Virus record (IMG/VR): IMGVR_UViG_3300049173_000078
Location: 15,509-79,508 of that record
Direction: 5' to 3' (one strand)
Length of the DNA stretch: 64,000 nucleotides
DNA from: a virus
Shown here one piece after another: positions 1,530-15,539 of the stretch (position 1 is the stretch's first letter; every line of letters starts with the position of its first letter). The position numbers were made by a program, and so were the translations under genes. The notes under the pieces are model-generated. The model was not told the origin of the DNA. It saw only the letters and a list, made by a program, of their open reading frames with translations, and did not search any database.

Positions 1530-2075
1530 CTACTCCTTCGTGGAACCGGCGAGGACGTCGAGCACGGCTTCCGCCGCGGCGGCGTCGCCGACGAACCGCC
1601 ATGTGCTGATCGCTTCGGTGACCGGCGGCAGCAGCGCGGCGCGGTCGACGTCGACGCGGGCCGGCTGCCGGGCGAGCCGGTCGAGGTTGTGCAGCGCGGT
1701 CTCTGCCTCGCGTCGCCGGCGGGCGGGAATGCCTGTGTCGCAGCACGCTTCGCGGCTTCCCCAGGCGGGTCCGTCGCCCGGGTCAAGGCGGTCGTCGTGG
1801 TAGCGGCAGGCCTGCGGCAGGCTGTCGAGGGCGGCGCGCAGCACGGGCAGGGCCGTGCGGATACGGCGGCCGGTGGCGCCCGGCTCGGGCGGTCGTGGTG
1901 CGGTGCTGAGCGCGGCGCGCAGTTCGGTCGCGGCGCCGCCGTACGCGCGCAGGACGGCCCATCGGGAGGCGAGCCGTTCGGCGGCCTCGACGGCGGCCTC
2001 TGCGGCCTCGACGCGGGCGTACAGGTCGCCGAGGTCCGCGCTGGTGAGGTCGTCGAGGTGGATCCTGCTGGTCAA
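1530..2075 (-). CDS. Hypothetical protein
   Basis: TTG start with AGGAGG RBS, coupled to neighbouring genes. Confidence 0.7.
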   Translation of the reverse strand: MTSRIHLDDLTSADLGDLYARVEAAEAAVEAAERLASRWAVLRAYGGAATELRAALSTAPRPPEPGATGRRIRTALPVLRAALDSLPQACRYHDDRLDPGDGPAWGSREACCDTGIPARRRREAETALHNLDRLARQPARVDVDRAALLPPVTEAISTWRFVGDAAAAEAVLDVLAGSTKE

Positions 2076-2350
2076 CGGTGCCTCCTGGCTGCGGGACCGT
2101 ACGGGCTGGCCCATGCGGGGCGGTCGCCAGCCAGGCGGACGGCGTGCGGCCGTCGACGGCGTTCGCGGGCCGGCCGGTCGTCGGCCAAGCCGCAGCGCCG
2201 CAGGTAGTCGACGAGCGGGCGGACCGCTGCGGTCAGCGCACGGGCCATCTCGCGGAAGGCGTCGACGACCTGGCGGAGCAGGCGGGCCGTGCGGGCGACG
2301 TGCTCGCCGAGCGCGCGAGCCTGCTCAGGGGTGAGGCGGGTTAGTCGCAC
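2072..2350 (-). CDS. Hypothetical protein
   Basis: ORF in the operon, stop overlaps next start. Confidence 0.55.
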   Translation of the reverse strand: MRLTRLTPEQARALGEHVARTARLLRQVVDAFREMARALTAAVRPLVDYLRRCGLADDRPARERRRRPHAVRLAGDRPAWASPYGPAARRHR

Positions 2351-2353
2351 GGG

Positions 2354-2581
2354 TCAGCTCTCCTGCTGCTCGTCGTCGGTCTCGGGAAGGGTGAACTCGT
2401 GCCAGGACACGCCGGTCAGCTCGTCCGGCAGTGCGGCGCCGACGGCGGCCGTGACGGCGGCGCCGACGAGTGCGGCGGGCCGGTCCGAGGCGAGCGTGAG
2501 GGTGACGTTGATTCGGCGGCGGGTCTGCTCGGCGACCGGTGTCGTGTCCTCGATGCGTGCGACTGCGTCAGTGGCGGTCAT
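2354..2581 (-). CDS. Hypothetical protein
   Basis: 75 aa ORF tightly packed in the operon. Confidence 0.6.
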   Translation of the reverse strand: MTATDAVARIEDTTPVAEQTRRRINVTLTLASDRPAALVGAAVTAAVGAALPDELTGVSWHEFTLPETDDEQQES

Positions 2582-2650
2582 GTGGTGCGCTCCGATACGG
2601 GGGAAGGCCCGGCCGCGCGGGCGGCCGGGCGAGTGGTGCGGTGGTGCAGG

Positions 2651-3178
2651 TCAGTAGCCGAAGCCGTCGCCGAAGGAGACGAGGAACCAGCGGGGCGTTT
2701 CCTGGACGGGGACCAGTTCGAGCGCGTCCAGGGCGACCACGAGCCGGCTGTCCCAGTCCTCGGCGGCCGGGCGGGCCGCGAGGTCGAGCGGGTCGATCAG
2801 TTCGACCTCGCCCCGGGCGACGCGGGTGACGTGCGCGGCGAGCGCGTACATGGGGGCGCCGTCCGAGCAGTACGTCGCGACGCTGACGCCGACGCGGTCC
2901 TGTGCCTGCTTACGCCGGTCCCAGAACCCGCCCTCGTCGGCGCCCGCGGTGAAGGTCTCGGTGAACCCGCCGACGGTCTTCAGCAGGTGCGCGTCGGCCG
3001 CCGTCGCGAAGTCGTTGCCGTCCTCGTCGTCTTCGTCGCCGTCGTCGTCCGGGTCGAACCAGGGCGTCGGCAGCAGGTAGCCGTGCTCGTCGACCTGCTG
3101 GACCTTCCAGCCGCCTTCGGCGTCGTCGCTGCCGAGGTCGTAGCCGTAGATCAGCAGGGCGTCGGTTGAGCGTCCCAT
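2651..3178 (-). CDS. Hypothetical phage protein (MGRSTDALLIYGYDLG...)
   Basis: Globular-looking C-terminal part of ORF 2651..4000; ATG overlaps upstream TGA. Confidence 0.75.
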   Translation of the reverse strand: MGRSTDALLIYGYDLGSDDAEGGWKVQQVDEHGYLLPTPWFDPDDDGDEDDEDGNDFATAADAHLLKTVGGFTETFTAGADEGGFWDRRKQAQDRVGVSVATYCSDGAPMYALAAHVTRVARGEVELIDPLDLAARPAAEDWDSRLVVALDALELVPVQETPRWFLVSFGDGFGY

Positions 3179-3777
3179 CAGGAGGTGGCTCCGTTCGTGT
3201 CGTGACCGGCCGCCGCGGCGGGCCGGTCGGCGTCGGCGGCGGCGAATCCCTCGGCGGCGAGCGCGTGCATGACGTCGCCCGTGTGGGGGTCGCAGGCGCT
3301 CGTGATCGCGGTCGGGTCGGCGTCGACCTGGGTGAAGGTCAGGAAGGTCTGCTCGGCGATGCCGTTGCAGTCGCGGCAGCGCTGGAAGGGCAAGGCGGGG
3401 ATCACGAGGAAGGTGAACCCGTCGGCGGCGATCGCGTCGCGCATGCGCTGCTCGGCGTGCGCGCGGGGCGTCAGGCCGTGGTCGTCTTCGTGGGTGCGGC
3501 ACATGTCGTCGATGGGGACGGCGGCCGGCCACGCTTCGATCAGGTCGGCCATCCAGTGCGCGACCAGTACGGGCGTGACGGTGTCGTCGCACGCGGCGCG
3601 CCAGGTCTTTTCGACGTCGTCGAGGTCGGGTCGGGGCGCGGTGTCGGCGTGCTCGGCGCACACCTCGGCGACGGTCGGCGCGCCGGTCGTCGGGTGGACG
3701 ATCCACGCGCGATGCGTGGCGGTCGTCTCGCAGAGACGTTCCGGGCCGGTCGGGAACAGGCAGGGGAAGATGTTCAA
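3178..3777 (-). CDS. Hypothetical protein with CxxC motifs
   Basis: 199 aa ORF, stop overlaps next ATG. Confidence 0.7.
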   Translation of the reverse strand: MNIFPCLFPTGPERLCETTATHRAWIVHPTTGAPTVAEVCAEHADTAPRPDLDDVEKTWRAACDDTVTPVLVAHWMADLIEAWPAAVPIDDMCRTHEDDHGLTPRAHAEQRMRDAIAADGFTFLVIPALPFQRCRDCNGIAEQTFLTFTQVDADPTAITSACDPHTGDVMHALAAEGFAAADADRPAAAAGHDTNGATS

Positions 3778-3846: not shown

Positions 3847-5673
3847 TCAGGCGGCGAGGTCGAGGAAGCGGGCCCAGAGCAGCCGCAGGGCGGCGGCGGC
3901 CTGCTGCGGCACGACGCCGTTCCCAAGGGCCTTGAGCTGCGCACTGCGCGGCAGGCCGGGAACGCCGGTCACGTGGCCGAGGGGGAGGCCCATCATCCAT
4001 TCGACGAACGCGGGGCTCAGGCGACCTCGATCGTCAGTTGGCCGGGGGGCGAGCCGTCCGAGGATGGCTTCCCACCGCCGGATCGCGGGCTCGTAATCGC
4101 CCCATTCAACGTCGGGTTGCCCCTGGCGTAGGTCGCGCTCGTCCGGTCCCCGTCCGCTGCTGTCGGCGTCGGCAGGATCCTCGCCGCGGCGCTCGCGAGC
4201 GTGAGGTCCCCGCGTCCCCCGTGCTGGTTCGGGCTGCCCTTCCTGCCGTCCGTCGCCCTCGGCGTCGGCAGCAGGCGCGGCGGCCTGGGGCCGGTCGGCG
4301 CAGTCGTCGCAGTCGTCGTCGCAGACGGGTCGCCCGAGGTCGGGGTCTGTGCAGTGGTGGCAGCCTGCGCAGAATCCTCCGGCGTCGTGGAGGTGCTCGG
4401 CGCATCCGCAGGTGGGGCAGGCAGGCTCTTGATCTTCCCCGCGTGGATGACGTCCGACAGCGTCCAGCAGATCGACACCTTCGGGTTGACCGTCGAGCGG
4501 TTCGCCGTGGCGTTCCTGGTGCCCTTCGCGTCCCCCGCGAGCGGCGTCGGCAGCAGCTTCGGAACGAGGCTGTCCAGGGACGGCCGGACCGCCGCGCCCG
4601 TGCTCGCCGACTGGTTCGACCCGTACGGCGTCGCCGTCGGTGTCGGCAGCAGGCGCCGCGCTCCCGCTCCGTCCGGGAGCAGCCATTCGACCTCGTCCGC
4701 GAGCGTCGGACCGTGCCTGCCCCGCTTCCTCTTGTCCGGGTGCTGCGAGCCGCCGTTCACCGCTATCTGCGCCGTCGGCGTCTTCAGCAGCTTCACGGCC
4801 GCCGGAAGGGAGTCCTCGAAGCCCATCCCCCGGGCGTCCCTCGCGCGCGGCGTCGGCAGGTTCGCGATCCGCGCCCGCAGGGTGTCGTTCCTCGGCCCGT
4901 CGGGCCTGCCCGGTCCGTTGTGTTCCTTCGTCGTCGGCGTCGGCAGCAGCGCGGCGGCGGCGGGCGAGGATGAACTCACGGAACCGCTCGTGGGGAGCGC
5001 CTCTCTCCTCAGCGCGTACGCCACACCATTCCGCATCGAACCCGAGGCGGGCCAGGTCGCCGAGAACGGCGCCGAGAGCGCGAAGAACGAATCTTGCTCC
5101 GGTGGCTGGGTCCATATCCGGAGCGTCTGGTCCCAGACCCCGATCGGCTTTCTGCGAGAGGATCCCTCGGACATTTTCGATCACCACCCATTCGGGTTCG
5201 AGTGCTTCGATGGCGCGTGCGCAGTGCAGCCACAGGCCGGACTTCGTGCCCTCGGCGATCCCCTCGCGCTTGCCCGCGAGGCTGAGCGACTGGCAGGGGA
5301 AGCCCATGGTCAGACCGTTGGGCCGTTCCACGGTCGACCAGTCGATAGCCGTGATGTCGCCGTGGTTGGGGATCTTGGGCCAGTGGTGCGCGAGGATCTG
5401 CGCGGCGTACTGGAAACGGTCTTCGGGGTCGTACTGGCAGTGCCAGGCGACGGAGCCGCCGAAGACCTCGACGGCGGCCATGTCGAGACCGCCGTATCCG
5501 GTGCAGAGGCTGCCCCAGCGGAACCCGTCGGGGAAACCGTCACGGGCCTTTCTGGGGCCCGCCGTGGAGAACTGGAGCGGGACGGGCGGGCTGGCCCACA
5601 TCAGGTGACCAGGGGCGCCCCCAGCGCCTTCGGTGAGGCGCTGGGGGACGTCGGTCGTCAGGGTCTCGTTCAC
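3847..5673 (-). CDS. DNA (cytosine-5) methyltransferase
   Basis: Motif I SLCTGYGGLD, catalytic GFPCQ, ENV, GAPHxRxR, FVEWMMGLP and LGNGVVP. GTG start overlaps the upstream TGA. Confidence 0.9.
   Translation of the reverse strand: MNETLTTDVPQRLTEGAGGAPGHLMWASPPVPLQFSTAGPRKARDGFPDGFRWGSLCTGYGGLDMAAVEVFGGSVAWHCQYDPEDRFQYAAQILAHHWPKIPNHGDITAIDWSTVERPNGLTMGFPCQSLSLAGKREGIAEGTKSGLWLHCARAIEALEPEWVVIENVRGILSQKADRGLGPDAPDMDPATGARFVLRALGAVLGDLARLGFDAEWCGVRAEERGAPHERFREFILARRRRAAADADDEGTQRTGQARRAEERHPAGADREPADAAREGRPGDGLRGLPSGGREAAEDADGADSGERRLAAPGQEEAGQARSDARGRGRMAAPGRSGSAAPAADTDGDAVRVEPVGEHGRGGPAVPGQPRSEAAADAARGGREGHQERHGEPLDGQPEGVDLLDAVGRHPRGEDQEPACPTCGCAEHLHDAGGFCAGCHHCTDPDLGRPVCDDDCDDCADRPQAAAPAADAEGDGRQEGQPEPARGTRGPHARERRGEDPADADSSGRGPDERDLRQGQPDVEWGDYEPAIRRWEAILGRLAPRPTDDRGRLSPAFVEWMMGLPLGHVTGVPGLPRSAQLKALGNGVVPQQAAAALRLLWARFLDLAA
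4017..5174 (-). CDS. Nested +1-frame ORF inside the methyltransferase, LPTP-repeat protein resembling the EcoHK31I beta-type polypeptide
   Basis: 385 aa open frame; ATG inside the ENV codons (GAA AAT GTC) after GGTGGTG; WPASGSMRNG segment; seven L(P/K)TP units. Confidence 0.65.
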   Translation of the reverse strand: MSEGSSRRKPIGVWDQTLRIWTQPPEQDSFFALSAPFSATWPASGSMRNGVAYALRREALPTSGSVSSSSPAAAALLPTPTTKEHNGPGRPDGPRNDTLRARIANLPTPRARDARGMGFEDSLPAAVKLLKTPTAQIAVNGGSQHPDKRKRGRHGPTLADEVEWLLPDGAGARRLLPTPTATPYGSNQSASTGAAVRPSLDSLVPKLLPTPLAGDAKGTRNATANRSTVNPKVSICWTLSDVIHAGKIKSLPAPPADAPSTSTTPEDSAQAATTAQTPTSGDPSATTTATTAPTGPRPPRLLPTPRATDGRKGSPNQHGGRGDLTLASAAARILPTPTAADGDRTSATYARGNPTLNGAITSPRSGGGKPSSDGSPPGQLTIEVA

Positions 5674-6290
5674 AGGCTCAGCAGCTCCGACAGCATGTCG
5701 AACCCGGTCCGCTGACTGTCGTCGCCGTCGAGGTAGGCGACGGCGGCGCGAGCGGCCTCTTCGCGGGTTTTGCGGTGGGAGACGATCGTCTTGTGGCCCT
5801 CGGGGCGGGCCGACCACAGCTCGCGGTTCCCGCTGGTCGGGTAGACGTAGACGGTCGTGCCCTTGTGCTCGAAGACGCTGCTCTTGCTGCCCTTGCTGAG
5901 GGGGCGCATCTCGGGCGTGACCTGCTCGTCCTGCGGCGCCTGCTCGGCGACCACCTCGGCGACCACCTCGGCCTGGGGGCGCTTCCGGATGATCACGTAG
6001 TCGTCGGCGGGGACGACGTCGCAGGCGTAGTCCCAGATTTCGCCGTCGTAGAGGATGACGAGCTCCTTCGCGCGGTCGTCCTCTTCGAGCGACGTGTGTC
6101 CGGGGCACTGGCAAGCGGGATCGTCGGCCTTCGGGTCGGCGACGTACGGGTCCGAGTGCTCGATGACCTCGATCTTCCCGGTCCACGCGGACAGGACGGT
6201 GCAGCCGAGCACGACGTCGCCCTGGCGGACGTCGCGGGCGAGGACGGCTTCGGCGTCCGTGCGGTTCAGGTTGATCTCGATGCCGGTCAT
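5670..6290 (-). CDS. Hypothetical protein (MTGIEINLNR...)
   Basis: ATG with GGGAG RBS, has its own upstream promoter. Confidence 0.75.
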   Translation of the reverse strand: MTGIEINLNRTDAEAVLARDVRQGDVVLGCTVLSAWTGKIEVIEHSDPYVADPKADDPACQCPGHTSLEEDDRAKELVILYDGEIWDYACDVVPADDYVIIRKRPQAEVVAEVVAEQAPQDEQVTPEMRPLSKGSKSSVFEHKGTTVYVYPTSGNRELWSARPEGHKTIVSHRKTREEAARAAVAYLDGDDSQRTGFDMLSELLSL

Positions 6291-6328
6291 TCGGTGTCTC
6301 CCGTGGGTTGTGCCGTGCGCTGACACAC

Positions 6329-6359
6329 ACAATGTTGCACCCTCGCGTTGCACTGTCAA
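6329..6359 (-). promoter_or_regulatory. Putative sigma70-type promoter with two GTGCAAC repeats
   Basis: TTGACA at 6359-6354 on the minus strand in an AT-richer gap; the -10 is non-consensus. Confidence 0.5.
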
Positions 6360-15297: not shown

Positions 15298-15539
15298 CCT
15301 GCTGGATCCCTTCGAGTGCGGTACGCGGCGAGGGTCTTCGCGCCGCGCCTGACGCCGTCCTCCTCGGCGCACGTCTTGTGAGCCGGCCGCCTCTGCTCGT
15401 CGAGCAAGTGCGTGAGCCGCTCGCAGTACCGGCACGGCAGGGGCTTCTCCCACCAGTGCGACCGGTCCGACCAGTCGAGGAGCTGGCCGGGCGCGAGCTC
15501 GGGAAGAGGCGGCAGCGGCTTCTTAGGTCTCCGCGGCAT
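15294..15539 (-). CDS. Small protein with CxxC...HxxC motif
   Basis: PCRYC...HKTC. Confidence 0.65.
   Translation of the reverse strand: MPRRPKKPLPPLPELAPGQLLDWSDRSHWWEKPLPCRYCERLTHLLDEQRRPAHKTCAEEDGVRRGAKTLAAYRTRRDPAG

Follow-up and report, generated by a model that had tools for sequence, protein, structure and literature searches.

How many proteins does the cytosine methyltransferase gene of a Streptomyces-type phage encode? The question is raised by a 1.8-kb stretch on the minus strand of a 64,000-nucleotide (nt) piece of viral DNA (positions 15,509 to 79,508 of IMG/VR record IMGVR_UViG_3300049173_000078; hereafter the window, with a G+C content of 72-74%), in which two frames of the same strand stay open together. 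The longer open reading frame (ORF), in what we call frame A, bears the motifs of a DNA cytosine-5 methyltransferase, and the shorter, in frame B, is offset from it by +1 and lies fully within it, with an overlap of 1158 nt. Two open frames alone are weak evidence for two genes, because the DNA is 73% G+C, and the ORF list of the window holds spurious ORFs of 300-500 codons in every frame. What computation finds here beyond open frames is purifying selection specific to each frame, avoidance of stop codons in both, a conserved start for the nested ORF, and homology to alpha and beta chains that are encoded separately in other phages. From these sequence comparisons we consider it probable that the locus encodes a two-subunit DNA cytosine-5 methyltransferase from two overlapping same-strand genes, alpha in frame A and beta in frame B.

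The two frames, a nested ATG within the codons of the ENV motif and, in frame B, a WP..G..RNG motif plus seven L(P/K)TP units had been pointed out in the preliminary description of the locus, and all were confirmed from the sequence. Frame A is open from 6414 to 3847 of the minus strand (ORF list and translation). Its likely start is GTG 5673, which forms a GTGA overlap with the stop of the upstream ORF and whose equivalent is the start in the gene calls of two homologues, L096 and L097. Motifs I (binding of S-adenosylmethionine, at about 5511), IV (Pro-Cys, the Cys of PCQ at 5295-5293), VI (ENV, 5178-5170) and VIII (about 4995-4963, with His at the usual Gln position) follow in order in this frame, the Pfam family PF00145 matches only its N-terminal part (residues 28-219, E = 8.5e-25), and a profile of the core matches M.HhaI (E = 1.4e-16). 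Motifs IX and X lie at the C-terminus of the same frame (4110-3850), with matches to PHROG 1008 and PHROG 10223; the preliminary description had rightly assigned them to the main frame, and their position sets the window apart from both M.EcoHK31I and the relatives typified by Arthrobacter phage ArV1 that are discussed below. It had also held that the nested ORF ends right where motif IX begins, which is approximately so, the frame-B stop lying about 90 nt inside the conserved C-terminal block and just ahead of the motif IX core. Between motifs VIII and IX, frame A shows no folded domain for target recognition; its stretch there is low-complexity, unselected and predicted to be disordered, and the conserved modules lie in frame B.

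If both frames are coding, in which of them does selection act? Third-position G+C favors frame A over 5620-5215, frame B over approximately 5170-4405, frame A again over 4360-4315, frame B over 4270-4090 and frame A below about 4045, with values of 0.8-0.93 for the frame-A core, 0.88-1.0 for the frame-B modules and 0.85 for frame A in a Cys-rich cassette. Substitutions tell the same story. In a pairwise comparison with L084, a viral contig 90% identical to the window over 2.1 kb, the N-terminal core has 25 substitutions on frame-A third positions vs 12 and 7 on the other two, and the C-terminus 11 vs 2 and 3, whereas it is frame-B third positions that take most of the changes over 4949-4420 (24 vs 15 and 14) and 4289-4110 (11 vs 6 and 3); the 225-nt overlap has only six changes, and the only indels within the gene are three of 3 nt each. 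The preliminary description had proposed comparing selection on the two frames across homologues, and with substitutions pooled by codon phase over 18 of them (Table 1) both frames prove to be constrained, in alternating stretches. Selection along the gene is thus a mosaic: frame A, both frames where motifs VI-VIII overlap the start of beta, frame B, frame A in the Cys-rich cassette, frame B, and finally frame A. The switch from A to B and back to A is also clean in the nucleotide diversity of 49 Streptomyces chromosomal loci, an independent group in which the frame-B-coded part is only about 40 codons long and third-position diversity is lowered in the overlap. Across six close pairs, each phylogenetically independent of the others, the synonymous differences of frame A number 39 of 414 in the overlap vs 127 of 770 upstream, approximately a halving, which is expected if frame B adds constraint.

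Table 1. Coordinates of features in the window, and substitutions pooled by codon phase over 18 homologues (A1 = B3, A2 = B1, A3 = B2)
Feature	Coordinates	Strand	A1/A2/A3	Remarks
alpha-long ORF (frame A)	3847..5673	-		608 codons + stop; core, overprinted linker, motifs IX-X
Frame-A N-terminal catalytic core, motifs I-VIII	4963..5523	-		Phase variation, G+C at third positions, M.HhaI profile match, AlphaFold2
Shine-Dalgarno-like GGTGGTGATC	5179..5188	-		4 nt upstream of beta ATG; 15 loci
Nested beta ORF (frame B = +1)	4017..5174	-		ATG 5174 to TGA 4017, 385 codons + TGA
Doubly constrained overlap	4953..5174	-		alpha motifs VI-VIII (A) and beta N-domain (B)
Frame-B-coded putative recognition modules	4420..4952	-		LPTP at 4935-4946, 4848-4859, 4776-4787, 4638-4649, 4542-4553
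Cys-rich cassette coded in frame A	4294..4419	-		Pro/Thr/Ala-rich spacer when read in frame B
Frame-B-coded last two modules	4111..4293	-		LPTP units 4260-4271 and 4164-4175
Frame-A C-terminal block, motifs IX-X	3850..4110	-		Overprinted by last 31 beta codons (4110-4020)
Selection on frame A	5680-4961		e.g. 99/79/165	Flattened in the overlap to 127/87/156
Selection on frame B	4960-4421		e.g. 94/49/26	
Selection on frame A	4420-4331		7/8/28	Cys-rich cassette
Selection on frame B	4330-4151		40/21/9	
Selection on frame A	below 4150		e.g. 59/57/211	

The second line of evidence is the absence of stop codons. In every locus whose C-terminus is coded in frame A, the stretch coded in frame B has no frame-A stop at all, where some 20-45 would be expected overall. 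When the frame-B codons are shuffled, a long locus is expected to contain 3-6 frame-A stops; the window should have 3.15, with a chance of 0.028 that frame A stays open, and L099 should have 5.8, with a chance of 0.001. For the window alone this chance is 0.03-0.07 across both of our nulls, the other being synonymous resampling that keeps the same beta protein, which predicts 19.7 frame-A stops over 10 loci. As a control, the -1 frame of 13 ordinary genes of the window was found to hold 37 stops vs 45 expected, and we take the null for the stop counts to be sound because ordinary genes are near expectation. By these family-wide tests, the open state of frame A is far more than chance would provide. 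The relatives with the ArV1-type frame order show no such avoidance, having 6, 1, 0 and 3 stops vs 4.7, 3.3, 0.65 and 3.2 expected. As for frame B, stops scattered through it in close homologues were what the preliminary description said would undermine a nested gene; among 15 loci of the subfamily there is one, in L004, vs 20.1 expected, and frame B is open in the other 14.

The third is the start of beta. Its ATG at 5174 is formed by the AAT-GTC codons (Asn-Val) of the ENV motif, and the AAT that makes it is used in all 15 subfamily loci, even though AAT is a rare codon that accounts for only 10 of the 161 Asn codons (6%) in the window's genes. The Shine-Dalgarno-like sequence ahead of it, GGTGGTGATC, is complementary to the 3' end of 16S rRNA at 9 of its 10 bases (reading by eye), and both this sequence and a frame-B TGA ahead of the ATG (5183-5181) are conserved in 15 of 15 subfamily loci. 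In a second subfamily the conserved frame-B ATG is another one, which lies 68 nt upstream of ENV. A promoter scan found no sigma-70-like promoter inside the gene, so beta probably shares the transcript of alpha.

Could frame A nonetheless be the only frame translated, frame B being an ancestral relic or a chance open frame of high-G+C DNA? Public annotation does give frame A only, long spurious ORFs are frequent in the window, and the AlphaFold2 prediction of beta by itself is poor. Such a reading, however, leaves out of account that frame B was selected during the divergence of the loci with the window's frame order, that it has one stop where 20 are expected and that its start has been kept through a rare codon; the stretch that frame A would contribute is low-complexity and predicted disordered, and the enzyme would be without any recognition domain. 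We regard it as highly improbable.

Relatives drawn from genomes, viral contigs, metagenomes and sequenced phages allow the arrangement to be seen in other forms. We typed 94 loci by frame order, defined as the frames of the N-terminal core, the repeat modules and the C-terminal block with motifs IX-X, so that the window is A,B,A and the ArV1 type is A,B,B. The window type was found in 76 of the 94 and the ArV1 type in six, and a few loci are single-frame; the architecture is present across Streptomyces, Arthrobacter, Propionibacterium and other actinobacterial phages and prophages. In ArV1 itself two overlapping coding sequences are annotated, ORF067a and ORF067b, the second in the +1 frame with a 266-nt overlap, and in phage Jamun the homologous pair is annotated as gp39 and gp40. 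In these two phages of lower G+C, alpha ends just past motif VIII, and the N-domain, LPTP modules and motifs IX-X are all encoded by beta, a +1 ORF whose start lies within alpha. An alpha ending after motif VIII or after part of the variable region, with a beta that holds IX-X, was found in L001, L003, L009 and L016, and is not the state of the window. Frame B of the window aligns to the first part of ArV1 ORF067b (E = 3e-27), and the C-terminus of its frame A is 64% identical to the last part of that same protein (E = 2e-34). In L087 motif VIII and, after it, the beta N-domain are read in one and the same frame, for which reason we consider this domain to be a genuine protein segment. The junction at which coding passes from B back to A falls at differing module boundaries in different lineages (PFR1, L017, L037, L043).

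Is the conservation of WP..G..RNG a mere by-product, being the +1 reading of alpha motif VII? The synonymous-site comparison, L087 and the conserved start oppose this explanation, and argue for selection on the motif itself. The tail of beta (PGQL...), also conserved, appears to be another matter: its conservation is best accounted for by the conserved segment of alpha ahead of motif IX, of which it is the +1 reading, and not by a function of the tail.

The same set of relatives bears on whether the frame changes could stem from faulty sequencing or assembly, or from decay of the gene into a pseudogene whose indels compensate each other. There are loci of damaged appearance: L004 has a stop in frame B, L074 one in frame A, and L014 several frame changes. 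Against this, the phase relations recur in 76 of the 94 loci, which come independently from isolates, metagenomes and sequenced phages; the indels relative to L084 inside the gene are all multiples of three, and both frames are under purifying selection, which makes such an origin barely credible. The damaged-looking loci are themselves worth recording. In L004 (positions 1880-3039; Streptomyces sp. NPDC050534) the frame-B stop comes after 151 codons and is followed by good beta sequence for more than 200 codons, which suggests either that beta of a resident prophage was inactivated recently or that the stop is a sequencing error. In L074 (2221-2400) a frame-A stop lies inside a module coded in frame A, and in L014 (1831-2600), a Gemmatimonadetes metagenome-assembled genome, the frame changes B, A, B, A among the LPTP modules; these two look like damaged copies or assembly errors.

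Beta matches PHROG 1008, the beta-long family, at E = 6e-22, and the profile of that family is split over the two frames of the window. There were 2181 matches to beta among 1.8 billion representative proteins, in many of which the N-domain is at the very N-terminus. The 12-mer that encodes the LPTP units occurs in five exact copies, one with one mismatch and one with two, and its exact copies in the window all lie within 4164-4946. Modules have been gained and lost among the relatives, and this part of the earlier suggestion of an expandable specificity subunit stands, while the role of beta in specificity is putative; the broader idea of a nested specificity or accessory subunit is supported by the frame-specific selection, the conserved start, the ArV1 and Jamun pairs, the depletion of stops and the model of the complex described below. 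The modules seem to change in multiples of three bases, so both frames survive. The Cys-rich cassette, of about 42 codons, is without a nuclease signature, and its resemblance to PF23903 is not significant (E = 0.18). Its Cys pattern is conserved in proteins P0001, P0006 and P0017, and it is found between different frame-B modules in L096, L098, L099, L006 and L086, the last of which belongs to the second subfamily. This suggests that the cassette may move by recombination at the repeated 12-15-mers that encode LPTP. Coded in frame A deep within a stretch otherwise coded in frame B, it requires translation of frame A there. A Cys/His-rich insertion of approximately 65 residues, unrelated to this cassette, is present between motifs IV and VI of alpha in phage Raleigh and a set of Streptomyces homologues (P0041, P0023; L012-L015, L025, L028).

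A further question is whether the two frames are joined by frameshifting, as the preliminary description had offered as an alternative to a separate subunit. One version is a single chain made by recoding, with a +1 shift from A to B after motif VIII and a -1 shift back before motif IX. Single-frame relatives such as L087 exist, the A-B-A order corresponds to the canonical succession of core, recognition domain and motifs IX-X, and in the group of 49 chromosomal loci there would be only some 40 codons of frame B to pass through. In the window, however, four shifts would be needed because of the frame-A cassette in mid-stretch. In 15 loci, the 60 nt that precede the C-terminal block contain no heptamer of the form X XXY YYZ in frame-B phase, and the flanks of the B-to-A junction differ between loci; it is for want of a slippery heptamer at the junction that we rank frameshift readings low. 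A recoded single chain would also leave unexplained both the start and N-domain of beta over motifs VI-VIII and the avoidance of stops in frame A, and in the ArV1-type relatives alpha is ended by a stop. We consider it very unlikely.

The other version keeps two chains, as in ArV1, and has beta acquire motifs IX-X by a -1 frameshift near 4110, reading through in frame A being an unneeded by-product. In its favor, the ArV1-type relatives do have IX-X on beta, and the last 31 codons of beta in the window, which are overprinted on the C-terminal block, look unselected. It is opposed by the same lack of a slippery site at the junction in the 15 loci. Moreover, frame A would then be free to gain stops, yet none has arisen in loci of the window order, while the ArV1-type loci have them at the expected rate, and the cassette needs frame A to be translated within the B stretch. 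It too seems unlikely, and the frameshift that had been proposed finds no support at the junctions and does not account for the stop-free state of frame A.

Structure prediction is informative in what it does and does not fold. For alpha-long, AlphaFold2 gave a predicted local distance difference test (pLDDT) score of 80-95 over the core (residues ~25-220) and of 90-95 over the C-terminal block (495-584), and of about 30-40 over the linker between them, in which the Cys-rich cassette scores 55-67. Six amino acids (Ala, Gly, Arg, Asp, Glu and Pro) make up 77% of the frame-A linker, a composition characteristic of high-G+C coding DNA read out of frame. We also modeled a complex of three chains, the alpha core, the C-terminal block and beta 1-190, using custom alignments. 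It scored 0.88 vs 0.00 for the best of three controls; the mark used for this score was reached by 58 of 80 solved complexes and two of 110 mismatched pairs, and is rough here, with our own alignments and three chains. The runs had at least 68% of their contacts in common, with a partner pLDDT of at least 53. In the model, beta 38-50 lies on the strand of alpha motif VII and the first LPTP unit on the C-terminal block, and this interface falls in the part of beta encoded by the 4953-5174 overlap. No solved structure matched the beta profile at E up to 1; with no relative of beta among solved structures, the score cannot stem, as far as beta is concerned, from a similar complex already known to the predictor; the alpha core resembles M.HhaI. 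The model therefore supports binding of alpha and beta, at the level at which a prediction can. The residues that pair in it with the lowest expected error, Asp-Ala-Glu-Trp of alpha motif VII and Gly-Ser-Met of beta, both come from a single stretch of ~15 bases, each in its own frame (5042-5026 of the minus strand; coordinates by hand, pairing from the model only).

How, then, might the locus work? Ribosomes starting at 5673 would read frame A throughout to make the core with motifs I-VIII, a disordered linker of about 285 residues and motifs IX-X, the linker being essentially the -1 reading of the DNA that codes for beta, with one small Cys-rich cassette of its own. Ribosomes starting from the internal Shine-Dalgarno-like site and ATG 5174 would read frame B to make beta, consisting of a putative N-terminal docking domain, whose codons share their bases with those of alpha motifs VI-VIII, and then seven short LPTP modules, which we take as the candidate target-recognition part. 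Beta would bind to alpha at its motif VII/VIII strands and its C-terminal block, thereby completing the small domain of the enzyme. With IX-X in the frame of alpha, it is understandable that alpha of the window has no stop after motif VIII and that its beta is fully nested and without IX-X. We infer that both chains are made and bind each other, that beta sets the specificity and that the enzyme shields the phage DNA from restriction.

Several observations weigh against this two-subunit interpretation. To conserve a linker of about 285 residues without evident function is unusual. Beta has no Pfam match at E up to 0.1, and its AlphaFold2 prediction alone has a mean pLDDT of 47.9 and only the N-terminal hairpin confident. 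The sequence GGTGGTGATC is made of common Val-Val-Ile codons and could be partly incidental. The single frame-B stop occurs in a close homologue, L004, the loci are phylogenetically related and the stop-avoidance statistics consequently not fully independent, and the lowered synonymous rate in the overlap vanishes at larger divergence.

Among known enzymes, two natural two-chain C5-methyltransferases have been described, M.AquI, which is split in the variable region, and M.EcoHK31I, whose beta lies wholly inside alpha in another frame and supplies motif IX (PMC3404938, PMC2836561). The window resembles M.EcoHK31I (from E. coli HK31, recognizing YGGCCR) in that its second ORF, too, lies wholly within the methyltransferase ORF on the same strand. 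The partition of domains differs. Alpha of M.EcoHK31I has motifs I-VIII, the recognition domain and X, whereas that of the window keeps both IX and X; beta of M.EcoHK31I provides motif IX only, whereas beta of the window has the putative docking domain and the repeat modules, by a comparison of layout. In the window, then, motif IX is in frame A and the modules are in frame B, the opposite of a beta that supplies IX to an alpha holding the recognition domain. It is ORF067a/ORF067b of ArV1 and gp39/gp40 of Jamun, homologues of the window, that have an M.AquI-like partition, from which the window departs in that its IX-X block has moved into the alpha frame. Joining the two halves of alpha by a linker overprinted on beta is without a described counterpart. 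We did not find the architecture described in the literature searched (on ArV1 ORF067a/b, on overlapping or nested actinophage methyltransferase genes and in recoding reviews). The window has the nested layout of M.EcoHK31I with a different domain partition, one that we have not found described for actinophages. Actinophage methylases are known to harbor out-of-frame HNH insertions (the ShiLan domain, Pacc40 gp60), which are of in-frame length and form a harmless loop in the other frame (PMC11855218). The Cys-rich cassette follows the same logic, being coded in A and a spacer in B, but the HNH cases are described as selfish nuclease ORFs in a single-frame methylase and not as alpha/beta dual-coded enzymes, whereas the cassette is part of one of two chains that are predicted to be functional.

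What forces might have produced such an overlap? The multispecific C5-methyltransferases of Bacillus phages SPR, phi3T and rho11s carry several short tandem recognition modules, each with a conserved Thr-Leu-type core, between motifs VIII and IX. The seven LPTP modules of the window and their shuffling among relatives resemble these arrays, although the Bacillus phage enzymes are single polypeptides, unlike the predicted two-chain enzyme. One could speculate that the overlap is an evolved design and no accident of gene splitting, in which the beta modules form a multispecific array driven by recombination and the frame-A linker is a stop-free tether whose length tracks the number of modules and which can host frame-A cassettes like the Cys-rich one. 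We find this doubtful, but if it were true, a single shuffling event would remodel both subunits coherently.

In bacteria and phages, few long overlaps of same-strand genes are well supported, and these are disputed. The window offers an overlap of 1.16 kb in which selection alternates between the frames and for which relatives with split chains are natural controls. It would also make a clean test bed for dual coding, as single synonymous mutations can silence one chain with the other intact, and if the modules do set specificity, the enzyme would be a natural scaffold for modular cytosine methyltransferases and for phage anti-restriction.

The locus further exposes a systematic annotation error, since the middle third of what is annotated as a "DNA cytosine methyltransferase" is an off-frame translation. 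RefSeq-style records and the record of phage Raleigh give a single frame-A protein. In an IMG metagenome contig with a near-identical gene (L100, 1612-3480), the catalytic core is covered by a called antisense ORF of 265 residues, frame B is called as a 269-residue "hypothetical protein" that starts at an internal Met, and the C-terminus is represented by a 49-residue remnant. Around the gene in the window, the neighboring ORFs on the minus strand are without a PHROG match, both upstream (5670-6359, 229 residues, GTGA-coupled) and downstream (3178-3777, 199 residues). In the homologous contigs L096 and L097 the next gene after the methyltransferase is of the WhiB family, and in L098 (632-1504) a Dam-type methyltransferase gene (PF02086) lies directly upstream of the dual-coded C5 gene and overlaps its start.

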